Source: Acidobacteriota bacterium
GTDB taxonomy: Bacteria > Acidobacteriota > Blastocatellia > UBA7656
Assembly: GCA_040754075.1 (NCBI GenBank)
Contig: JBFMDH010000001.1
Span: forward strand, 166,262 to 230,261
Length of the DNA: 64,000 bases
Direction: 5' to 3'
A program made the translations under genes and the position numbers. Numbering within the stretch: the stretch's first letter is position 1; each line of letters begins with the position of its first letter. This document shows, in pieces, positions 1,658-61,129 of the stretch. Under the pieces are notes generated by a model. The model ran no database searches and was not told where the DNA came from. It saw only the letters and a program-made list of their open reading frames with translations.

Positions 1658-1691
1658 CAGTAGGCAGCCGGCAGTAGGCAGCAGGCAGTAG
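1658..1691. repeat. heptamer tandem array (AGTAGGC-type), left arm of the inverted pair flanking the four-helix-bundle gene
   Basis: cagtaggcagccggcagtaggcagcaggcagtag. Reverse complement of 2123-2152 matches about 26 of 30 positions by eye. Confidence 0.8.
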
Positions 1692-1728
1692 ACAATTTCA
1701 TTTTTGAGTTTATTGTTTCTTACCATTT

Positions 1729-2088
1729 CTACCTTTGAAGAGAATTAGAAAGCCCGTTAATTGAACGACCAATTTCTGATGTAAGCACGATTATGTTTTG
1801 TGAAGCCTGTGGCGGCAAATAACCGAGCCTTTCAGCTATCAGTATTTGCGTTTCGACTTCGCGCAGAGAACCATAAGCGATGGAGAGAAAGTGTGCAAAC
1901 TCTCCAGCAGACTTGCGTCCTTGCCCCTCCGCAATATTAGACGGAATAGATATGGCTGCTCTGCGAAGTTGGCTAGTTAATCCATAAATCTCTTCTTTGG
2001 GAAAATTCTTCGTCTCAGAATAAACTGCTTCAACTAAATCCATAGCTTTTTGCCAGACTATTAAATCTCTGTAATTCTGACTTGCCAT
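1729..2088 (-). CDS. four-helix-bundle protein (23S rRNA intervening-sequence protein family, TIGR02436-like)
   Basis: 119 aa. YRDLIVWQKAMDLVEAVY...LTSQLRRAAISIPSNIAEGQGR is the characteristic family signature. Confidence 0.85.
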   Translation of the reverse strand: MASQNYRDLIVWQKAMDLVEAVYSETKNFPKEEIYGLTSQLRRAAISIPSNIAEGQGRKSAGEFAHFLSIAYGSLREVETQILIAERLGYLPPQASQNIIVLTSEIGRSINGLSNSLQR

Positions 2089-2122
2089 ATTGATTGAAAG
2101 TTTTAATAAACCAAAAATAAAA

Positions 2123-2152
2123 CTGCCTACTGCTTACTGCCTACTGCCTACT
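2123..2152. repeat. heptamer tandem array (CTGCCTA-type), right arm; overlaps the asd stop codon
   Basis: ctgcctactgcttactgcctactgcctact. 7 nt period. Inverted relative to 1658-1691. Confidence 0.8.
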
Positions 2153-5678: not shown

Positions 5679-7232
5679 TCATTTTTCGTCACTTTGATTT
5701 TGTTCTTCTTCGGCTGAAATCAAACGTAGAACCGTCGTTTTATCGTCTTTATAAACCACTTTAAAAATCCGGCTGCGTTCGGTGATGTCGAGAAACTCTC
5801 GATGTTGATTATCGGTGAACACATATTCGGCTCCGAACCGTTCGCGAATCAAAATCGCCGCGTCGCTTCGACGACCAAGCGTGATGTCGGCGTAAAGATG
5901 CCATAACTCGCGGTCTTGGTCATAAAGATAAGTCGGGTCGAGTCCGGCAGTGTAGGCGTTATTCGGGCTGAAGTAAAAGAGCATCGGGAAATCATCCCAA
6001 TCAGTGTTAAAGACCAGCGTTCCGGGGGACGTGTTTTCCGCGAGCCATTTGCCTGCGCCTTCGTAAGCAAACGGGTCGGCTTCGCTGCTCACATCTTTGC
6101 AGGCTTGTGCGACGTTGATCATCATCGTCGCAAGCAAGGCAATAGCGAGAATGATTGAAACACTGATGGCGATAATCGAATCGCGGGTTCGCGTAAGCCA
6201 TGGGTGATTCAATTGCGGTTTGATGGTGAATGCGCCGAAGAGAATTGCAAACGGCGGAAAGTATTCGATGAACCGCCGCGATTTGAAAACCATGAGCATC
6301 AGCACAATGGCGATGAATAAAAAAAACAGCGGTTTCATATCTTCTGCGCGTTTGCGAAAGTCGAAGGCAATGAGCGCAGCGATGAAAATGATAAACGCGA
6401 GCGCGCTGCTGCCAATGAGCACCCACGAATCATAGGGATACCATTCGACGCCGACGTCGACCGTGTAATTTGCGGTCACTTTCATCAACAGGTGTTCGTA
6501 AAACAGTTTGAGATTGGTGGGGAAATAAGGGTTGATGATTAACCCGGCGATGATGCCGACGGTTGATGCCAGCACCGGACGAAAATCGAATTCACGCCTT
6601 GTTAAGTAAACGCAGGTTGAATAGCCAAGCGCCATCACCAGGGTGAGCGGGAATAGACTGTAAGCCCACACGAAAATGAAGGCGAGACACGCAAGCCACA
6701 AATTCTTGCGTTCCAAAATCAAGTGCGCGCCGATGCCCATCAAAATAATCGAGAGCGCGGGGGCGCGCGTCATGCTCAGGCGATAGAGAAAGGGTTCGGA
6801 ACTGGCGATGAGCGGCAACAGCCAGAGCCAGCGATAGGGGATGCGATACGCGACCAGCAAACCAAAAAGTGAAGTGAGCGCCAGGCTGGAAAAGGCTACA
6901 GCAGCCAGTTTCGCGCCAACGCGCAAATCTCCTAAGGTGAATGGCGAAAGCAACAGGTGATAAAGATAGTGATGGTCAACGTACTCATTTTCGTTGAGCG
7001 TCGTAAGCGGCAAGGCTTTGAATGATGGAAGGGCAGGGAAGGACTCTCTGAGCATCCGGCTCCAGCGAATGTGATAATAGCCGTCGTTATCGAGAATGGC
7101 TTTGCCGGAAAATTGAATCAACGCCATCACCGCCGAAATGACCAGAAAAGCGATGGCAATTTCTAACGCTGCAATTTTTCGCGAAGGCGCGAGCGTCTGA
7201 ACGGAAAGATTTTCTGTGAGCAATTCTTCCAA
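5679..7232 (-). CDS. polytopic membrane protein, possible GT-C-type (ArnT/PMT-like) glycosyltransferase
   Basis: 517 aa with many hydrophobic segments. First loop LDNDGYYHIRWSRML resembles the acidic-aromatic first-loop motif of GT-C enzymes. Assignment is tentative. Confidence 0.4.
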   Translation of the reverse strand: MEELLTENLSVQTLAPSRKIAALEIAIAFLVISAVMALIQFSGKAILDNDGYYHIRWSRMLRESFPALPSFKALPLTTLNENEYVDHHYLYHLLLSPFTLGDLRVGAKLAAVAFSSLALTSLFGLLVAYRIPYRWLWLLPLIASSEPFLYRLSMTRAPALSIILMGIGAHLILERKNLWLACLAFIFVWAYSLFPLTLVMALGYSTCVYLTRREFDFRPVLASTVGIIAGLIINPYFPTNLKLFYEHLLMKVTANYTVDVGVEWYPYDSWVLIGSSALAFIIFIAALIAFDFRKRAEDMKPLFFLFIAIVLMLMVFKSRRFIEYFPPFAILFGAFTIKPQLNHPWLTRTRDSIIAISVSIILAIALLATMMINVAQACKDVSSEADPFAYEGAGKWLAENTSPGTLVFNTDWDDFPMLFYFSPNNAYTAGLDPTYLYDQDRELWHLYADITLGRRSDAAILIRERFGAEYVFTDNQHREFLDITERSRIFKVVYKDDKTTVLRLISAEEEQNQSDEK

Positions 7233-11377: not shown

Positions 11378-11380
11378 ATA

Positions 11381-11549
11381 AATTGCGGATTGCGGATTGC
11401 CTGGATTTATAACTGGTTTTCACTTTCATGCCTAGATCACGGTTGCGCAGTAATAATGAAAGCCAGGAAAAAGAAATTGATTGATCTGCACACATCAAGC
11501 AAAGCAGAGATTTGAAAAAAGACAATCCGCATTTCGCAATCCGCAATTG
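11381..11549. repeat. inverted (ATTGCGG)n arrays enclosing a ~120 bp non-coding segment in the nuoA-nuoB spacer
   Basis: Left arm aattgcggattgcggattgcc (11381-11401). Right arm caatccgcatttcgcaatccgcaattg (11523-11549). Same repeat unit as 27362-27390 and 28280-28327. Confidence 0.8.
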
Positions 11550-25537: not shown

Positions 25538-26950
25538 TCATTTCGCGCCTGCGACATCAACGACTGCGCGCCAGATAAATTCGACGAATTTGCCTAAGCC
25601 GTCGATAGATAAACGTTCATCGTTGCCATGAACATTTGTCGGGAAGCGGTCATTAACGACGCTGCCGAGTCCGTAAGCCTGCACCCCTTTGGCGCGCAGT
25701 TGCGCCGAATCGGTCGCGCCTGTAAGCATACTCGGAAGCGTCACTGCGGTTGGAAACATTTTCTGTTGTGCGCGTTCGAGGGCTTGAAACATTTCTGTCG
25801 TAACCCCTGATGGCGCGGGCGCGGGTCTTCCGCGTCCTGACGGCGCAACCACTTCAACTGTCGAGTCGTCAATCAGCTTTTTCAAACTTTCCACCAGTGC
25901 GGGAATGTTTTCGTCGGGAACCGCGCGCACATCGAGGGTCGCTTCGGCATCGCCCGGTATCACGTTTGAACGAAAGCCGCCTTTAATAATCGTCGGCACA
26001 ATCGAGGTGCGAATCATCGAATAATATTGCGGATATTTAGCCCAGAGCTTTTCCTGTACTTTCGGGTCTTCAAGGTGCGTAAACAGATAAGCATCTTCGG
26101 GCGAACTGATTTTTGCGAGACGTTTAAAAAATTCGCGAGTGGTTTCATTGAGTCGCATAGGCACGAGCCAGTTGCCGACTTTAGCGACTGCCGCCGCGAG
26201 ATGGGTAATCGCATTATCCATTCGCGGCACCGACCCATGTCCGCTCGTTCCTCGCCCAATGAGCCGCATCCCACGCGGGACTTTTTCAGTGGTTGCAACA
26301 TTGACGCTGATGACTTTGTCACCGACCTCACGAATGCCGCCGCCTTCGTTCAAGGCAAACTCGCATTCGATTTTGTCCCAATGTTCATTAACCATATAAT
26401 CAATGCCGACGCGGGTCGTGCCTTCTTCACCGGCTTCAGCAAGAAAAATCACATCGCGGTCAAGCGGCATCTTCATTCGATGAAGCATCAGAAAAACTTC
26501 AAGACAAGCGATGGTCATGCCTTTGTCGTCGGATGCGCCGCGCCCGTAAATAAAACCGTCTTTGATAACCCCGCCAAACGGATCAACCGTCCATTTATCG
26601 CGTTCAACGCCGACCACATCAATATGCCCCATCAATAGAAGCGGGCGCTTTTTGCCGTTGCCTTTGAGTCGCGCCACAATATTGCCGCGCCCTTTTTCAA
26701 GTTCAAAAATTTCCGAAGCGATGCCTTCACGGTCGAATATGGCTTTCAGGTACTCAGCGCCTTTGGTTTCATTGCCCGGCGGATTGCTGGTATCAACTTT
26801 GACGAAACCCGCGAGCATCTGCACCGCTTCATCCCGCGCCTTGTTGAAGTCGGGCGCGGTGGTTTTTTGCAATGCAGAGGCGAGTGCGGATGAAGCGATG
26901 AGCAGAAAAACGGTTGCCGTGGCAACGACCAACTGAAAGCGTGAACGCAT
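25538..26950 (-). CDS. secreted M20/M25/M40 family peptidase
   Basis: 470 aa with a signal peptide. MGHIDVV, GRGASDDKG, AEAGEEG metal-ligand motifs. Confidence 0.85.
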   Translation of the reverse strand: MRSRFQLVVATATVFLLIASSALASALQKTTAPDFNKARDEAVQMLAGFVKVDTSNPPGNETKGAEYLKAIFDREGIASEIFELEKGRGNIVARLKGNGKKRPLLLMGHIDVVGVERDKWTVDPFGGVIKDGFIYGRGASDDKGMTIACLEVFLMLHRMKMPLDRDVIFLAEAGEEGTTRVGIDYMVNEHWDKIECEFALNEGGGIREVGDKVISVNVATTEKVPRGMRLIGRGTSGHGSVPRMDNAITHLAAAVAKVGNWLVPMRLNETTREFFKRLAKISSPEDAYLFTHLEDPKVQEKLWAKYPQYYSMIRTSIVPTIIKGGFRSNVIPGDAEATLDVRAVPDENIPALVESLKKLIDDSTVEVVAPSGRGRPAPAPSGVTTEMFQALERAQQKMFPTAVTLPSMLTGATDSAQLRAKGVQAYGLGSVVNDRFPTNVHGNDERLSIDGLGKFVEFIWRAVVDVAGAK

Positions 26951-27361
26951 AATTTCTCCTTAAATAAATGGGATGAACACAAGCCAATTCCGAATCGGTC
27001 AAAAGAAGATAATTCGCCGATACAAAAAGGTCAAAGTGATGTGAGGTTTTCGCGGCATAAAATAAAAATGATTTAAAATGCCTGTAATAATTGAGGTTTT
27101 GCTGCCGAGTAAAAATGGCACACTCGTTGCTCTGGTTGAGTACGGAAGCTTGAGGCACTTGTTAAGGTGCTTTCTTACGGAGCCATCATGCGGAACCGGT
27201 GTTTGCACGAATGATTCGCACATTGCTCATCGCAATCGCGGCAGGAACCTCACCTCTTTGCGCGGATGAACAATAGTGCAACGTCTGTTGCAAAACCTAA
27301 CGAAGAAGAACCCTCTCTACTCTTTTAAGTTCCGGTACGACGCATGATGGCGCCGCTTTCT

Positions 27362-27390
27362 CAATTGCGGATTGCGGATTGCGGATTGCC
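27362..27390. repeat. (ATTGCGG)4 heptamer array, left arm flanking the GIY-YIG cassette
   Basis: caattgcggattgcggattgcggattgcc. Near-perfect inverted match to 28280-28313. Confidence 0.85.
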
Positions 27391-27492
27391 GCTGCCAACT
27401 CATTCACCTTCACTTAAATATTTAACCCCGACAACCAAACATAGACTTGCCATCGCTAACGCTAAATTTAGTGACTAAAGGTGCAAGATATT

Positions 27493-28116
27493 CTACGCTT
27501 CAAAAAGTTCAGGTAACCCATATAAAAGAACTGTAGAGGTACTATTAACTAAAAACGGTTTCTCTTCGATCCAACGAGGAGCAAGAGCCATACCTTTATC
27601 TGGAATGGTACTAATAGGTTCTTCTGCTGAATAAAGTAAATTCATAATGGCTGCTTCTATTCTTGCAAGACTTCTACGTTCAGTGTTCAAAGGAGCAAGA
27701 AATATCCGAAAAGCAGAAAGCAAAGATTCTATTGGAAGTTCCAGTTCTTGATAACGAGAGTGAAACAATTGCTTCATTTCAGGAGTATTCGTAGACTTGC
27801 CCATCCACATACCATGCCAAAGTTCAACCCTCTTACCATTTTGCAAACTCTCAGGATCAAAAATTGTATAGGTTCCTTTTCTATAAGTGGCTATGTGTTC
27901 TTTAAGTCGCTTTTTAAAGGGTCTTGTAGTCCAGCCAGCCATATAGATTAAATACCCATTATTGTGTTCAACAGTAAAAAGATAAATTCCTGATTGCTCA
28001 ACTACTGGAGATTTTAAAAACAACTCTCCTTCACAACCTTGTAAAACTAGCGGACCTTTCCATGAAAGTAAGTAACTATCATGATCAGTATCATTGAGCA
28101 TAATTTTATTTGCCAC
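27493..28116 (-). CDS. GIY-YIG nuclease-domain protein, otherwise uncharacterised
   Basis: 207 aa. SGIYLFTVEHNNGYLIYMAGWTTRPFKKRLKEH fits GIY-(x9-11)-YxG-x-T-x(5-6)-R-x3-H, as in I-TevI and UvrC N-domains. The gene is visibly AT-richer than its flanks (by eye). Confidence 0.55.
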   Translation of the reverse strand: MANKIMLNDTDHDSYLLSWKGPLVLQGCEGELFLKSPVVEQSGIYLFTVEHNNGYLIYMAGWTTRPFKKRLKEHIATYRKGTYTIFDPESLQNGKRVELWHGMWMGKSTNTPEMKQLFHSRYQELELPIESLLSAFRIFLAPLNTERRSLARIEAAIMNLLYSAEEPISTIPDKGMALAPRWIEEKPFLVNSTSTVLLYGLPELFEA

Positions 28117-28175
28117 CTATCGACACAAAGCCGCCGAACTTCTATTTGAGAGCGGCTTACAAAATAATTCGCTGA

Positions 28176-28239
28176 GGTTGAGCAAGCGGTCTTTGACTAC
28201 GTCGTTATGACTTACTTGGTTGAGCAATCGGTCTTTGAC
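28176..28239. repeat. two direct copies of a 22-mer (ggttgagcaaNcggtctttgac), 42 bp apart
   Basis: 28176-28197 ggttgagcaagcggtctttgac and 28218-28239 ggttgagcaatcggtctttgac. The reverse complement recurs twice at 61083-61129. Confidence 0.75.
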
Positions 28240-28279
28240 CGCGTAAGGAATCGCAATCAAAGACCACTTGTGCGGCGCT

Positions 28280-28327
28280 CAATCCGCAATCCGCATTTCG
28301 CAATCCGCAATTGGAAAATCCGCAATT
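28280..28327. repeat. (CCGCAAT)n heptamer array, right arm; overlaps the serS stop codon
   Basis: caatccgcaatccgcatttcgcaatccgcaattggaaaatccgcaatt. Confidence 0.85.
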
Positions 28328-29609
28328 ATTTGATGATTTCCAATCCATCCAGATAAGGGCGCAGGGCTTCGGGTACAGCAACAGAGCCATCCGCCTGTTG
28401 ATAGTTTTCTAAAATTGCTAACCACGTTCGACCGATTGCCAAGCCCGAACCGTTCAAGGTATGCGCGAATTCCGGTTTGGCATTCGGTTCACGACGAAAG
28501 CGAATCTGCGCGCGGCGGGCTTGAAAGGCTTCGCAATTCGAGCACGAAGAGATTTCGCGGAAGGTTCCCTGACTCGGCAACCAGACTTCGATGTCATAAG
28601 TTTTTGCTGCCGAAAATCCCATATCGCCGGTCGATAGCACAATCGTGCGATATGGCAAACCTAATGCTTCAAGAATCGCTTCGGCGTTGCGCGTCAACTG
28701 TTCGAGTTCTTCGTAAGACTCTTCGGGTTTGGTGATTTTGACGAGTTCGACTTTATCGAATTGGTGCTGGCGAATTAAGCCTTTGGTGTCTTTGCCGTAG
28801 CTTCCGGCTTCCGAACGAAAGCATGGCGTATAGGCGGTCATTTTAATTGGCAAATTCGCGCCGTCCAAAATTTCATCGGCATAAATATTGGTCACCGGGA
28901 CTTCGGCAGTGGGAATCAAATAAAAATTCCGGTCGTCGGTGAGTTTGAATAAATCGCCTTCAAATTTGGGTAATTGCCCGGTGCCAAACAAGCTGTTGGC
29001 ATTGACAATGAACGGTGGCAAGACTTCCGTGTAGCCATGTTTTTTAGTGTGAAAATCCAGGCAGAAATTAATCAAGGCGCGTTCGAGTCGCGCGCCAAGT
29101 CCGGTGAGGATGGCAAAACGCGCGCCGGTGATTTTCGCGGCGCGTTCAAAATCGACGATACCAAGCCGCACGCCAAGGTCTGCGTGATCTAATGGTGTGA
29201 AGCCGAATTGGCGCGGTTCGCCCCAACGTTTGATTTCTTGATTTGCCGATTCATCTACGCCTACCGGAACGCTGTCGTGCGGCAGGTTGGGCACGTTGAC
29301 CAGTAAAGTTCTTAGCCCTTCTTCAACGTGTGTGACTTCGCTTTCGGTTGCGGTGATCTGTTCGACCAGTTCGCGAACCGCAGCGCGACGGGCTTCGGCT
29401 TCTTCCTTTTGCCCGGCTTTCATCATCTTGCCGATTTCCTGGCTTTCGCGATTGCGCGTCGCGTTTAAATCATCGCGTTTAGTAACTAACTGGCGGCGAC
29501 GCAAGTCGAGTTCATTAAATTCACTCAGCGCATCAAGCGGAAAATTGCGCGCTTCGAGTTTCTGTTTGACCAGTTCAAAATTATTGCGAACGTAAATGAC
29601 ATCAAGCAT
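28326..29609 (-). CDS. serS: serine--tRNA ligase
   Basis: 427 aa. N-terminal coiled-coil [23 protein letters not shown]. Class II motifs [25 protein letters not shown]. Confidence 0.95.
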
Positions 29610-30626: not shown

Positions 30627-30730
30627 AAGCAAATTATTCGTCATCGGTATTAAATTCTTGCGGCGGATGTAGATTTGCTGCAATCAGCAACCTGCGTAGA
30701 TTTATTACTTCTTCTCGATTCAACCGCAAT

Positions 30731-31077
30731 TCATTTATTGTTGCTCTTCCCGTAGCCGTCAATCCGATAAGTAATGTCGAATCCATTCCATGCAAAATGT
30801 TTCTTCCATTTTTGTTTTCTGGGATTATATAGTGGCACTACTTTCCCTGTTTGGAAGTCATAGCCGCCAATTTTGGCATGTTTATAGCCGTTACATCCTT
30901 GGCAAGCAAAGGCAAGATTAGCCAAAACGGTTTTGCCGCCCTGTTGTCGAGGTTTGATATGCTCAACGGCAAAAGAAGATAGTGAGTAATTGGCAGGGCT
31001 GTAACAATACTCACAATACTTTTTGCTCGTTTTTCTACGAACCGTTTTTGCTGAACTGTGACGCGCTTTTCAGACAT
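30731..31077 (-). pseudogene. HNH endonuclease, frameshifted
   Basis: Frame a: MSEKRVTVQQKRFVEKRAK. After the A-run near 31020-31024 the homologous reading continues in another frame: YCEYCYSPANYSLSSFAVEHIKPRQQGGKTVLANLAFACQGCNGYKH (HNH CxxC...H...N...CxxCN). The track shows it as two overlapping ORFs. Confidence 0.7.
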
Positions 31078-31471
31078 AAGCCGGAGGTCTAATGCCCAGA
31101 CTATCCATCAACTCATCCACTGAAACCTGACGAATTTGAGCAAGTTTTATTAAGGCTTCGAGACGGCGCACGTTTAATTGCTCTTGCTCTTTAACTAATG
31201 GTAACAACTCCTGATACTCTTTTTCAGTGATGGTCTCTTCTTGTAGTTTACTGTACAGTTTGTTGTACCGCCGCTGTTTATCTTTTGGGAATGCCTCTTT
31301 TATTTTGAGCAATAGTGCAGATTCGCGTTTTGACGGGCGCGGAGCTTTGCGGCGTGCCTGAACTTTCAAAACCTCTCCGGCAAATTTATCCAACTCTTGA
31401 GTGCTCAATTGCTCCACGGCTTGCAAAAGCTCGTCTGCGGAAAGTTTCGCTTGCACTTGAATGACTGGCAT
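31070..31471 (-). CDS. hypothetical protein, partner of the HNH gene
   Basis: Start chosen at the ATG at 31471 (MPVIQVQAKLSADELLQAVEQLS) preceded by ggagaacc. Overlaps the HNH start by 8 nt. Helical, charged, no recognised domain. Confidence 0.45.
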   Translation of the reverse strand: MPVIQVQAKLSADELLQAVEQLSTQELDKFAGEVLKVQARRKAPRPSKRESALLLKIKEAFPKDKQRRYNKLYSKLQEETITEKEYQELLPLVKEQEQLNVRRLEALIKLAQIRQVSVDELMDSLGIRPPAYV

Positions 31472-31484
31472 TGGTTCTCCTAAG

Positions 31485-32543
31485 CTAAGCGCCTTCTTTT
31501 TTGGCAAAGTAACCGCGACGATGACGCACGGTTAAATCTTTGCGATTTTTGACGCGCACAACAATCGTGCGAAATGACCCGTCCTGGGCTTCGTTCGATG
31601 ATTGATAGGTCAGGATATTATGCGAACGCAGGTCTTCATCAATCTGTGCGTAGGCTTCATCCAAATCCTTTTCACTGCGCGGCACGAATGAACGCCCGCC
31701 GGTCTCGCTGGCAATCTTCTTCAAATCACCCGAAGCAATGCCCGTCGAGCCGCTGATGCCGATGGTGTAGATGATCACTTCATGTCGCCAGGCTTTTTCG
31801 ATGGCTTCGCGCATTTTGATGTGGCTGTCGGTATCCTGCCCGTCGGTGAGCAAAATAATTACGCGGCGTCCGGCTTCACCGCTGAGCAATTCGCCTGAGG
31901 TTGAATAAATCGCATCGTACATCGCCGTCGCGCCGATGTGTGAACCGCCGTTGATCGGTGGCGTGCCTCTGCCGCTTGGGATTGCCGATGGCGCAACCGG
32001 TATGCGAACGTCATCAAGCGCGCGTTCCAGTTTCTGCATATTTGAAGTCAGGTCTTGCACCAGTTCGGATTCATGTTGAAAAGTCACCACGGCGGCTAAA
32101 TCTTTTTTCGGGCGCAAAATTCTCTCAAAGAATTTTTTCCCCGCAGAAATTTGAATCGGCAAAGTAAATTCCTGGCTGCCTGAAATATCAATCAACATGG
32201 CGATGGTGAGCGCTGCATCGGTTTGCCGGTCAAACGATTCAACCTGTTGCGGCTTGCCGTCTTCGAGGATTTCGAGGTCTTCTTTTTTCAAATCGTTGAC
32301 ATAGCGATTCGATTTTTCCGTAACCGTAAACGGCACGGTAACCAGTTGGGTGCCGAGTTTGATTATCTGACCGTCGTCCTCATCATCCGATTTTTTATTT
32401 TTATCGTCAGCTTTTTGGTTTTTATTTTCCTGATTTTTTTTCTCGGATTGTGGATTGAAATTGGCGCTGGTAATGGACAGCGATGAAAACAGCACTGCCA
32501 CAAATAACACTCCTGCAATGACTAAAAACTTCTGATACTTCAT
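31485..32543 (-). CDS. secreted VWA-domain protein (acidobacterial VWFA-related family, TIGR03436-like), paralogue 1
   Basis: 352 aa with signal peptide. IAMLIDISGSQ (MIDAS DxSxS). ILLTDGQDTDS. C-terminal HRRGYFA. Confidence 0.85.
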   Translation of the reverse strand: MKYQKFLVIAGVLFVAVLFSSLSITSANFNPQSEKKNQENKNQKADDKNKKSDDEDDGQIIKLGTQLVTVPFTVTEKSNRYVNDLKKEDLEILEDGKPQQVESFDRQTDAALTIAMLIDISGSQEFTLPIQISAGKKFFERILRPKKDLAAVVTFQHESELVQDLTSNMQKLERALDDVRIPVAPSAIPSGRGTPPINGGSHIGATAMYDAIYSTSGELLSGEAGRRVIILLTDGQDTDSHIKMREAIEKAWRHEVIIYTIGISGSTGIASGDLKKIASETGGRSFVPRSEKDLDEAYAQIDEDLRSHNILTYQSSNEAQDGSFRTIVVRVKNRKDLTVRHRRGYFAKKEGA

Positions 32544-36429: not shown

Positions 36430-36501
36430 GTAATGAGTGATGAGTGATGAGTGATGAGTTTAATACTCCCCGCTCATTACTCATTACTCATTACTCATCA
36501 C
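36430..36501 (+). repeat. inverted heptamer arrays forming a long hairpin favoured on the plus-strand RNA
   Basis: gtaatgagtgatgagtgatgagtgatgag (36430-36458), 14 nt loop, ctcattactcattactcattactcatcac (36473-36501). About 25 of 29 Watson-Crick pairs plus three G-U pairs that would be C-A mismatches on the opposite strand. Confidence 0.75.
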
Positions 36502-60429: not shown

Positions 60430-60545
60430 AGTCGGCAACCGGCAACAGGCGATAGGCAGTTAAAACGCCAAATAAATCCTTTTCCTTTGAAAAATCTTTA
60501 TAAACTGAATTTTTACTGTCTGCTGTCTACTGCCTACTGCCTACT
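60430..60545. repeat. inverted GGCA/CTGCCTA-type heptamer arrays after murA (same family as 1658-2152)
   Basis: agtcggcaaccggcaacaggcgataggcag (60430-60459) ... ctgtctgctgtctactgcctactgcctact (60516-60545) followed by tttgttt. ctactgcctactgcctact is identical to 2134-2152. Confidence 0.75.
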
Positions 60546-61082: not shown

Positions 61083-61129
61083 GTCAAAGACCGCTTTCTC
61101 AACAATCAGTTAAAGACCGCTTTCTCAAT
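61083..61129. repeat. two direct copies of the 21-mer gt(c/t)aaagaccgctttctcaa(c/t), 26 bp apart
   Basis: 61083-61103 and 61109-61129. The reverse complement gttgagaaagcggtctttgac differs at one position from 28177-28197. Confidence 0.75.

Follow-up and report, generated by a model that had tools for sequence, protein, structure and literature searches.

An AT-rich nuclease gene downstream of serS

Does a foreign gene that lies between two inverted repeats travel by means of those repeats? The question is raised by a locus of a Blastocatellia-like acidobacterium in which a short, AT-rich gene, directly downstream of serS, is enclosed by inverted arrays of a heptamer (27362-28327). The window, that is, the whole stretch of DNA analyzed here, is 64,000 nucleotides (64 kb) long. 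The arms enclose one ORF (27493-28116, minus strand), which has as neighbors serS upstream (28326-29609, same strand) and an M20 peptidase gene. As initially annotated, it codes for 207 amino acids when read from a GTG at 28116; read from an ATG at 28101 it codes for 202, and this ATG is the likely start, judging from the homologs, which begin there. The GC content is 0.36 to 0.39 across the ORF versus ca. 0.50 in its flanks (0.39 for the bracketed segment versus 0.50 for the window), and the GC at third codon positions (GC3) is 0.25, compared with 0.53 in serS, 0.54 in the M20 peptidase gene, and 0.53 to 0.60 in host genes, so that the first impression of a segment richer in AT than its surroundings was correct. 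The dN/dS values of the gene (0.10 to 0.24) indicate purifying selection. No sigma-70-like site could be recognized upstream of the ORF, and serS is encoded on the same strand, so that read-through from serS is the most likely mode of expression.

The product is very probably a GIY-YIG enzyme and would act as a nuclease. It contains a GIY...YxG...R...H motif, and the alignment of the family profile with I-TevI by hhalign (E value of 0.003) pairs GIY with GIY (Y45/Y6), G61 with G19, R70 with R27, and H74 with H31. Y45, G61, and R70 are found in 96 of 96 family members and H74 and E154 in 95, while the second tyrosine (column 59) is Tyr in 58 of the 96 and Met in the window protein. E154, the conserved glutamate, is on the helix after strand 3, as placed by position in the AF2 model and not by superposition. 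This model (pLDDT, 88.8; pTM, 0.85) predicts one compact domain with the alpha/beta GIY-YIG fold, the core of which runs from residue ~42 to residue ~163 and carries an insertion of ~55 amino acids (roughly residues 80 to 135). The good N-terminal GIY-YIG motif claimed in the initial annotation is thus upheld by the motif itself, by the profile alignment, and by the conserved catalytic residues, but the C-terminal ~120 amino acids, described there as unassigned, belong to the same core and form no separate domain. Neither Pfam nor the single-domain model showed a NUMOD, HTH, or zinc-finger module. Pfam GIY-YIG (PF01541) scores 14.8 bits on the window protein (E value of 0.035), below the gathering cutoff of 22.6, and matches 10 of the 96 members at E values of ≤0.01 (best, 5e-5). 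Foldseek gave no significant match of the window protein in the PDB (best, UvrC, with an E value of 0.11), and searches of the ORF against NCBIfam, PHROGs, and PDB sequences and profiles returned nothing useful.

The enclosing palindrome as a host element

The distal arm of the palindrome (27362-27391) reads CAATTGCGG(ATTGCGG)2ATTGCC and is a period 7 repeat in TRF, with (ATTGCGG)x3.7 and 100% matches at 27364-27389. The proximal arm (28280-28327) is made of (CAATCCG)n, with a variant unit CATTTCG, plus AATCCGCAATT; TRF found (CAATCCG)x4.6 with 84% matches at 28280-28311, and the last 2 nt of AATCCGCAATT (28317-28327) fall within the serS stop codon (28326-28328), confirming the overlap reported before. 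The inverted (ATTGCGG)n arrays are therefore real, but not near-perfect as had been stated, the complementarity of the arms being 92% over 25 nt or 84% over 38 nt. In the predicted RNA fold, the two arrays pair around the GIY-YIG ORF. Between the proximal arm and the 5' end of the foreign unit (see below), the rest of the loop (28140-28279) contains two direct copies of GGTTGAGCAAnCGGTCTTTGAC (28176-28202 and 28218-28244) and one inverted partial copy (28252-28270). The motif AAAGACCGNTTNCTCAAC appears twice more at 61086-61129 (four matches in total versus 0.03 expected), which gives this part of the loop the appearance of repeat DNA of the host.

The pair of arrays around the ORF exemplifies a class of intercistronic heptamer palindromes that is host wide and independent of the gene. 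The window has 13 period 7 arrays, versus 0 to 3 in shuffles, and they outnumber those of periods 5, 6, 8, and 9. All of them are intergenic, tandem 7-nt units being enriched between genes, and many of the spacers between cistrons are taken up by heptamer palindromes, which keep register with stop and start codons. With up to two mismatches allowed, the double unit ATTGCGGATTGCGG is present 14 times versus 1.45 expected, a number reached by none of 100 shuffles. One palindrome of the same arm family, in the nuoA-nuoB spacer (11380-11549), is empty, with a loop of 120 bp. Its arms are identical to those at 27362-28327 over 27 and 20 nt, including the variant unit CATTTCG (the 27-nt stretch of the proximal arm corresponds to 11523-11549, and the distal arm recurs at 11380-11402), while the two loops are unrelated and have nothing in common. 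A second filled palindrome, with CAGTAGG/ACTGCCT arms, lies between asd and the aspartate kinase gene (1658-2152, minus strand). Its loop, with a GC content of 0.38, holds an AT-rich ORF (1729-2088, minus strand) of the 23S_rRNA_IVP family (PF05635; E value of 1e-40), and this arm family too has an empty copy, at 60437-60545.

The serS gene of the window is 57 to 81% identical to those of 80 fetched genomes, and none of the 80 carries the GIY-YIG gene in its serS region. The GC and GC3 values agree with the initial view of the gene as compositionally foreign. The closest relative found (L012; serS 81% identical) has orthologous degenerate arms after serS, the distal arm of the window aligning with its degenerate array, but not the gene. 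Three other loci (L014, L018, and L019) have different heptamer palindromes directly after the serS stop. Downstream of the palindrome there is a conserved noncoding block (27135-27362, minus strand), 71% identical to positions 6364 to 6606 of L012 (E value of 3e-20), in which the two halves of a long-range stem, GCCATCATGC/GCATGATGGC, are conserved apart from a few changes that affect both sides; the block may be a structured RNA. The block has no Rfam match at E values of ≤1. The Rfam searches, which gave nothing at gathering scores in the window and nothing at E values of ≤1 in 26940-28340, argue against a group I intron, a riboswitch, or a known sRNA. A further relative (L013) keeps the block but has no palindrome after serS, which suggests that palindromes come and go.

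These observations bear on the idea of a family of mobile elements that have the heptamer arrays as their terminal inverted repeats and of which 27362-28327 would be a filled member and 11380-11549 an empty, MITE-like derivative. The near-identity of filled and empty arms (27 and 20 nt, with CATTTCG in both), the existence of filled and empty copies in the ACTGCCT family as well, and the absence of a palindrome after serS in L013 all speak in its favor. Against it, homologs of the gene elsewhere are never flanked by heptamer arrays (close homologs occur in at least seven neighborhoods), the orthologous arms of L012 enclose no gene, filled and empty loops share nothing, and no target site duplication is visible. 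Besides, the nested genes, neither of which is a known transposase, are not related to each other, and the register of the palindromes with stop and start codons is that of host intercistronic elements. We therefore consider this explanation unlikely. Of the repeat-bounded mobile cassette proposed initially, what stands is a foreign gene that moves horizontally; the arrays, which exist without the gene at 11380-11549 and in L012, and are missing around its homologs, are not its ends. Repeats beside a foreign gene are not necessarily its own ends. Probably, the gene was inserted into an older host palindrome.

Among known repeats, STRR are cyanobacterial heptanucleotide tandem repeats. The TAACTGA heptanucleotide repeats have been described in Beggiatoaceae, cyanobacteria, and Bacteroidetes, where they are intergenic (PMC4679880). 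The arrays of the window resemble both in their 7-nt units, in their abundance in intergenic DNA, and in often abutting or overlapping stop or start codons, but they differ in being inverted pairs that fill whole intercistronic spacers, in having several unrelated units, in their Blastocatellia-like acidobacterial host, and in that two pairs hold a gene in the loop. A single-copy gene between inverted copies of a dispersed palindromic repeat is also reminiscent of the REP/REPIN elements and their RAYT genes. However, the protein here is a GIY-YIG enzyme and not an HUH Y1 transposase, and the association with the repeat is found in no other gene-bearing genome.

The gene family and the horizontal movement of its close homologs

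The family profile retrieved 990 representatives at E values of ≤1e-3, nearly all matched over ~190 to 200 amino acids (~990 clusters at 50% identity), and none of the family members found carries a name or a Pfam domain. They amount to ~990 clusters with a compact GIY-YIG fold and without a Pfam, NCBIfam, or PADLOC model that covers them. The close homologs are single AT-rich genes, with GC contents of 0.35 to 0.45 versus 0.52 to 0.60 in their hosts, located in at least seven unrelated neighborhoods with no shared synteny, among them single-gene insertions between housekeeping genes (next to serS, to rpoD plus a membrane protein gene, and to gatC). In more distant members, the GC content matches that of the host. 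The foreign composition, the absence from the serS regions of relatives, and the AT-rich homologs in unrelated neighborhoods indicate that the gene moves horizontally, and the recurrence of the single AT-rich gene pattern in independent assemblies makes an assembly artifact unlikely. The 64-kb window has one copy. Subclade patterns found no relative in viral contigs, from which the conserved 3' element described below is absent too, and tblastn found none in phages and plasmids. An ORF of ~175 amino acids upstream of the gene in three loci (L002, L009, and L011) was considered as a conserved partner and rejected, as it is missing elsewhere; an ORF of 173 amino acids in L003 codes for an unrelated membrane protein.

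Cassette-like ends in relatives

In four loci of relatives (L006, L127, L003, and L130), there is a conserved unit that ends in GTTRRRY/RYYYAAC-like cores. L006 and L127 are 96.7% identical over the 91 bp 3' of the stop codon, while their outer contexts are different, and the gene is flanked by inverted repeats of 13 bp in L006 (P < 0.005) and 10 bp in L127 (P = 0.02). L003 and L130 have 9-bp repeats (P = 0.09 in the former; found by eye in the latter) in a covarying version, TTGGGC/GCCCAA. Flanking inverted repeats do not characterize the family as a whole: they reach significance in L006, L127, and L095/L096 alone, and those of L003 are marginal. When the 3' and 5' ends are joined, hairpins of 78 to 95 nt with bulged bases are predicted in L130, L006, and L127 (z scores of -5.7 to -7.9), although these scores partly reflect the inverted repeat found beforehand, and the likeness to attC was judged by the cores and the predicted fold. 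The junction is GCCCAAC...G|TTGGGC in L130 (78 nt; z scores of -5.7 and -6.6) and GCCGAAC/GTTCGGC in L006 and L127 (95 nt; z scores of -6.0 to -7.9), whereas the joined hairpin of L003 is weak (-0.7 to -1.0). Folded in its native context, the L006 3' element does not stand out (z scores of -0.2 to -1.9), and strong structure appears only in the joined form. A reading of these repeats as palindromic target arms carried along by homing was dropped, given that the joined ends form one continuous hairpin.

The homology starts at G|TT in four of five loci. L003 and L130, the cores of which fit GTTRRRY/RYYYAAC exactly, both end in ...CCCACCG|TTAT and then diverge; the 3' end of the L006/L127 type (…TTGGC) lacks the expected terminal G. 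In the window, the conserved 5' element of the traveling unit is G|TTCGGCGGCTTTGTGTCGATAG (28116-28139, minus strand), which includes a GTTRRRY-like core. It aligns with the 5' flank of L127 with a z score of 3.97 (0 of 500 shuffles were as good), and the same core begins the homology in L006, L127, L003, and L130. The 3' flank of the ORF (27392-27492, minus strand) has no demonstrable attC-like element: its global alignment with the 3' elements of L006 and L127 is no better than with shuffles (z scores of 0.1 to 0.3), and the rebuilt junction folds weakly (z scores of -1.4 and +0.7 for the top and bottom strands). A decayed attC ending in GAGTTGGC beside the distal arm, noticed by eye, was dropped with the same shuffle z scores of 0.1 to 0.3. 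Because only the 5' core is kept and no attC can be demonstrated, the window copy is probably immobile now, and the interpretation of its vehicle as an integron cassette rests on the relatives. The Acidobacteriota copies, at different sites, make up a series from an intact attC-like hairpin to one that is undetectable.

An attC site was taken to be an imperfect palindrome of 57 to 141 nt that follows the ORF on its 3' side and carries RYYYAAC and GTTRRRY cores. Isolated integron cassettes (SALINs) and insertion at genomic 5'-GWT-3' sites have been described (preprint 10.1101/2022.09.11.507474). Like SALINs at such attG sites, the unit of the relatives is a promoterless single ORF plus an imperfect hairpin of 78 to 95 nt, circularly permuted, with RYYYAAC/GTTRRRY cores and G|TT boundaries, and it lies alone among housekeeping genes, co-oriented with the upstream gene. 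It differs from them in that the fetched flanks of the copies showed no integron integrase, attI, or cassette array, in that one type of 3' end is atypical, and in that the window copy has lost the hairpin. Judged from these sequence features, an integron-type vehicle has about even chances, with an integrase as the presumed agent.

Another recombinase or transposase acting in trans might instead recognize the short inverted ends, in which case the unit would be a small nonautonomous cassette of an undescribed kind. In four loci, the changes in the homologous inverted repeats of 9 to 13 bp match between the two sides, which would fit such an enzyme, as would the absence of an integrase or array nearby and the poor fit of the L006/L127 3' end to G|TT. 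Nevertheless, only after joining do the two ends both adjoin the inner hairpin, a circular permutation typical of integron cassettes, the L003 and L130 cores conform exactly to the consensus, and no target duplication was seen, all of which makes this alternative rather improbable.

We assign an equally low probability to a free-standing homing-type endonuclease, which would cut gene-less sites, possibly the empty palindromes of its own arm family, the gene being copied during break repair with its flanks as homology. Among the GIY-YIG enzymes are the Seg endonucleases of T4, which are free-standing and the genes of which, like those found here, lie between genes and are present sporadically (PMC2988022). 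Single-gene insertions between conserved housekeeping genes, presence or absence at the serS site, and the near-identical arms at 11380 and 27362, which would supply the homology, agree with this scenario. Unlike the seg products, the protein is one compact domain without a DNA-binding (NUMOD-type) module, and the family has no link to phages, being absent from the phage and viral collections. Furthermore, the number of different insertion sites (at least seven) speaks against site-specific homing, the 64 kb contain one copy while the matching empty palindrome is unoccupied, and the conserved flanks resemble a split hairpin and not the halves of a target.

Finally, a normal, resident gene of the host, such as one for a repair nuclease, that has an odd composition, is not mobile, and lies only coincidentally next to the arrays would explain the purifying selection and the distant members that match the GC content of their hosts, but is very improbable in view of a GC3 of 0.25 versus 0.53 to 0.60 in neighboring genes, the absence from the serS region of all fetched relatives, and close homologs without any synteny.

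In the reading that we prefer, that of an integron-type cassette, a lineage with inverted-heptamer palindromes in many spacers between codirectional genes would have received a foreign single-gene insert of ~0.7 kb in the loop of a preexisting palindrome that begins at the serS stop codon. The vehicle, as it appears in close relatives, would be an ORF without a promoter and, behind it, an imperfect attC-like hairpin, the closing stem of which is split between the ends of the unit, and an integrase acting in trans could have placed this isolated, SALIN-like cassette at a secondary G|TT site. Taken as a whole, an orphan integron-type cassette that codes for a restriction- or defense-like nuclease, sits in a host palindrome, and is expressed by read-through from serS is a reading for and against which the odds are evenly balanced. 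Provided that these units are integron cassettes, they offer environmental cases of a phenomenon described recently, the spread of cassettes beyond integrons.

Possible role and fate of the nested genes

The 47 neighboring ORFs at 15 loci include toxin-antitoxin and defense genes, such as PIN (four), HTH_3 (four), HigB, AbiEii/AbiEi, AAA_21/AAA_15 (PtuA-like), N6_N4 methyltransferase, HNH, PDDEXK_4, and SLFN_AlbA_2. Since the family is common beside such genes, it is a candidate single-gene restriction or defense enzyme. On this guilt by association, restriction-like or defensive cleavage of DNA seems the likeliest role, but we propose it tentatively and at somewhat less than even odds. PADLOC models gave no match with the window protein; among the 96 members, 9 weakly match the candidate PDC-S14 (best E value, 2.8e-5) and 3 match UzuA.

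It is also conceivable, though quite unlikely, that the heptamer palindromes are safe harbors within operons, repeatedly colonized by small selfish genes such as the GIY-YIG cassette and the 23S_rRNA_IVP gene. The stem of the arrays would be cut in the polycistronic RNA, for instance by RNase III, and the insert excised in the manner of a 23S rRNA intervening sequence. If so, the expression of the host genes would be spared and the guest would obtain its own mRNA. The resemblance to those intervening sequences lies in a long stem that surrounds a small ORF within a transcribed unit of the host, and in the second nested gene of the window, itself a member of the 23S_rRNA_IVP family; the host unit here, however, is an mRNA spacer and not rRNA. 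In a stronger variant, the GIY-YIG enzyme may cut the empty palindromes of its own arm family, so that the gene spreads by repair. Within 64 kb, there are at least two palindrome loops with a guest gene, which makes the tolerance of operons to insertions testable.

PD-T4-3 is a single-gene, 5hmC-specific GIY-YIG nuclease. Neither it nor the GIY-YIG restriction enzymes R.Eco29kI and R.Hpy188I has a detectable sequence relationship to the window ORF, and two features set the window family apart, the insertion (~residues 80 to 135) and the conserved strands at the N and C termini. In contrast to type II restriction-modification systems, the window copy has no adjacent methyltransferase. At one surveyed locus elsewhere, the N6_N4 methyltransferase gene lies ~1.5 kb from the family gene.

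A foreign GIY-YIG gene in a host palindrome

Downstream of serS, a foreign gene for a GIY-YIG nuclease is lodged in the loop of a host palindrome made of two inverted heptamer arrays (arms). Every kind of component in this arrangement is known; the novelty lies in the protein family, in the paired heptamer palindromes between cistrons of an acidobacterium, and in guest genes nested inside the loops. The arms consist of (ATTGCGG)x3.7 at 27364-27389 and (CAATCCG)x4.6 at 28280-28311, the latter followed by AATCCGCAATT at 28317-28327, which shares two bases with the serS stop codon. They are complementary at 92% over 25 nt, or 84% over 38 nt, and the window has 14 copies of the double heptamer where 1.45 would be expected. 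The sole ORF between them (27493-28116, minus strand, like serS) probably starts at the ATG at 28101, judging from its homologues, giving a protein of 202 aa. GC across the ORF is 0.36-0.39 versus about 0.50 in the surroundings, and its GC3 is 0.25, compared with 0.53 for serS and 0.54 for the M20 peptidase gene. These coordinates and compositions bear out the initial annotation of an AT-rich segment with one ORF bracketed by inverted heptamer arrays.

No sigma-70-like promoter was found upstream of the ORF, and therefore its expression likely comes from serS read-through. In the predicted RNA fold, the two arrays pair around the ORF in both the minimum-energy and centroid structures (z -2.66). 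The motif AAAGACCGNTTNCTCAAC forms tandem pairs at two intergenic places (4 matches versus 0.03 expected), one within the palindrome loop upstream of the ORF (28177-28236) and the other after a terminator in the spacer between a HIT-family gene and an M28 peptidase gene (61086-61129).

Heptamer arrays as a host feature

The window contains 13 period-7 arrays, compared with 0-3 in shuffled sequences, at nine loci (seven inverted pairs and two single arrays). Most are inverted pairs that occupy the whole spacer separating two co-directional genes. Their proximal arm starts from 5 nt before to 13 nt past the stop codon of the upstream gene, and their distal arm ends 5-20 nt ahead of the next start. 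Arrays at 11380, 25489, 33640, 36430, 39645, 55853, and 60437 comprise at least six unrelated heptamer units, and that at 36430-36498 forms a perfect 27-bp hairpin (z -8.6). Heptamer arrays are also frequent in loci of several other Acidobacteriota, one of which (L014) has 9 in 11 kb.

The arm family of the serS palindrome recurs in the nuoA-nuoB spacer (11380-11549) around a gene-free loop of 120 bp. Both palindromes have the variant unit CATTTCG within arms that are identical across 27 and 20 nt; their loops are unrelated. In the relative L012, whose serS is 81% identical, two degenerate arrays follow the serS stop, ATTGYGG-like first and CAATCCG-like second, separated by a loop of ~110 bp; beyond them lies a conserved non-coding block. 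The match between L012 and the window (71% identity, E 3e-20) begins within the distal arm, and this locus is an approximate empty site. Three other serS relatives (L014, L018, and L019) have heptamer palindromes of different units immediately 3' of the serS stop, and no heptamer arrays were found around homologues of the gene at other loci. Because of the empty nuo copy, the gene-free arms of L012, the other serS palindromes, and the array-free homologues, we conclude that the arrays belong to the host and are separate from the GIY-YIG gene, contrary to the initial proposal that they bound the cassette.

A second palindrome is also filled. In the asd-aspartate kinase spacer, inverted arrays at 1658-1691 and 2122-2152 (CAGTAGG/ACTGCCT arms), the proximal one overlapping the asd stop codon, surround 430 bp with a GC of 0.38, in which the sole ORF (1729-2088, minus strand, the host strand) is 23S_rRNA_IVP/bAvd-like (E 1e-40). 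The same heptamer unit is found gene-free at 60437-60545. Guest genes thus occupy two palindromes among the nine array loci; the loops are either favoured lodging sites or places where insertions are tolerated.

In three Pyrinomonadaceae-like relatives (L017, L020, and L021), the position after serS holds a small two-gene module instead; insertions thus recur in the serS 3' region. By eye, this module resembles an AbrB/MazE-MazF toxin-antitoxin pair. The serS-downstream palindrome of L014 is itself a palindrome nested within a palindrome, its 207-bp loop (6361-6567) containing two GC-rich perfect hairpins, e.g., AGCCCCGTTAGGGGCGACAC…GTGTCGCCCCTAACGGGGCT.

The conserved block 3' of serS (window 27135-27362, L012 6388-6615, and ~3190-3392 in the relative L013) had no Rfam match and could be a structured RNA of ~200 nt not yet described. 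It is 71% identical between the window and L012, with a long-range stem GCCATCATGC / GCATGATGGC that is retained in both, with a few two-sided changes; a candidate alternative complementary pair in L013, GGCCACCGTACA / TGTACGGTGGCC, was seen by eye only.

Mobility of the gene

Close homologues of the gene (58-82% identity) are found in unrelated neighbourhoods: serS/M20 peptidase in the window, nanE-ROK in L001, a 175-aa ORF/hydrolase in L002, L009, and L011, rpoD plus a membrane protein/PIG-L in L003-L005, gatC in L006-L008, and the additional short contigs L127, L128, L129, and L130. The gene has a GC of 0.35-0.45 within GC-rich hosts (0.52-0.60), the AT-rich patch being essentially the gene alone, and it was found at none of the 80 serS loci retrieved from other species. 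This marks it as a foreign gene that moves, and the initial proposal of a compositionally foreign, mobile cassette is thus partly supported, though not as regards the arrays as bounds of the unit. In L129, the host DNA is AT-rich as well (GC 0.38), which may hint at the type of donor; in distant members (≤50% identity), GC matches that of their hosts (0.36-0.72).

Two homologous loci, L006 and L127, have in common the 91 bp 3' of the stop (96.7% identity) and an upstream element, while their outer contexts differ. Inverted repeats flank the gene in L006 (TTGTTCGGCGACT / AGTCGCCGAACAA, 13 bp, p<0.005), L127 (10 bp, p 0.02), L003 (GTGTTGGGC / GCCCAACAC, p 0.09), and L130 (GTTGGGCGC / GCGCCCAAC, read by eye), in two versions whose differences are matched on both sides. 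Homology between loci starts at G↓TT(C/G)GGC in four out of five, and L003 and L130 have a common end, CCCACCG↓TTAT, beyond which they diverge. GTTGGGC and GCCCAAC are exact matches to GTTRRRY/RYYYAAC, the consensus of integron cores. When the 3' end of the unit is joined to its 5' end, the two form a single long imperfect hairpin interrupted by bulges and an internal loop, with z scores (top/bottom strand) of -5.7/-6.6 in L130 (78 nt), -6.0/-6.6 in L006 (95 nt), -7.0/-7.9 in L127 (95 nt), and -0.7/-1.0 in L003 (102 nt).

A promoterless ORF with a hairpin site behind it, circularly permuted in this way, is the layout of an integron gene cassette, and from its sequence the unit in the relatives resembles an orphan cassette of integron type. 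Integrase-less single cassettes (SALINs), and their insertion into genomes at 5'-GWT-3' sites, have been described in a preprint (10.1101/2022.09.11.507474). Neither an integrase nor a cassette array was seen near any copy of the gene, and the 3' end of the L006/L127 unit is atypical. Only part of the unit is kept in the window, where the 5' element matches L127 (z 3.97) and the 3' flank is unalignable with the hairpin of the relatives (z 0.1-0.3).

The protein family and its possible function

The window protein scores 14.8 bits with the Pfam GIY-YIG model, under the cut-off of 22.6, and sequence searches of NCBIfam, PHROGs, and PDB returned nothing useful. Its assignment to GIY-YIG in the initial annotation is nevertheless upheld by structure, alignment, and catalytic residues. 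The AlphaFold2 model, with 15 homologues as input, is confident (pLDDT 88.8, pTM 0.85); the top Foldseek ranks, UvrC and PD-T4-3, were both non-significant. A profile of 96 family members matched the I-TevI catalytic domain (E 0.003), pairing GIY with GIY, G61 with G19, R70 with R27, and H74 with H31. Y45, G61, and R70 are invariant among the 96 members, with H74 and E154 each conserved in 95. The standout deviation lies in the YIG motif, where Met takes the place of the second Tyr in the window protein; 58/96 members have Tyr there. Based on the model and residue conservation, the predicted GIY-YIG core spans residues ~42-163 with an insertion of ~55 aa, and family-specific conserved strands lie at both ends; the C-terminal 120 aa, previously left unassigned, do not form a separate domain.

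A profile search (E≤1e-3) retrieved 990 representatives of 50% identity clusters, nearly all aligned across ~190-200 aa. Annotation is lacking across this large family: members with a name are all called hypothetical, and precomputed Pfam domains are absent throughout. Compared with its relatives, the window gene has a dN/dS of 0.10-0.24.

The family has no conserved partner gene, and searches of phage, plasmid, and viral collections found no relatives. Of the 47 ORFs neighbouring the gene at 15 loci, about one-third are of toxin-antitoxin or defence types, including PIN x4, HTH_3 x4, HigB, AbiEii/AbiEi, a PtuA-like ATPase (AAA_21/AAA_15), an N6_N4 methyltransferase, HNH, PDDEXK_4, and SLFN_AlbA_2. 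PADLOC gave only weak matches, to the candidate PDC-S14, in 9/96 members. GIY-YIG restriction enzymes have a core with insertions (PMC1564403), an architecture like that of the window protein. Homing enzymes have separate DNA-binding modules, which the architecture of the window protein does not match. Our best guess, a tentative one, is that the cassette carries a restriction-like or defence nuclease as its cargo; a self-mobilising homing enzyme seems less likely.

In L128, a small AT-rich ORF (92-394; …GKIYVGKD…YFGS…), without a recorded Pfam match and by eye like a minimal GIY-YIG domain, ends 6 nt before the homologue start. An ORF of 175-180 aa without a Pfam match (MKKVFIGGSRR…GDANGADKAVQ…) precedes the homologue in the related loci L002 (4083-4945), L009 (85-612), and L011 (137-679); in L002 a 112-aa ORF stands in front of it, and the two may be an unrelated conflict-type gene pair. 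In the window, an AT-rich patch at 30634-31507 (GC ~0.42), without flanking heptamer arrays, holds a 145-aa ORF with no Pfam match and overlapping short ORFs that by eye resemble a frameshifted HNH endonuclease.
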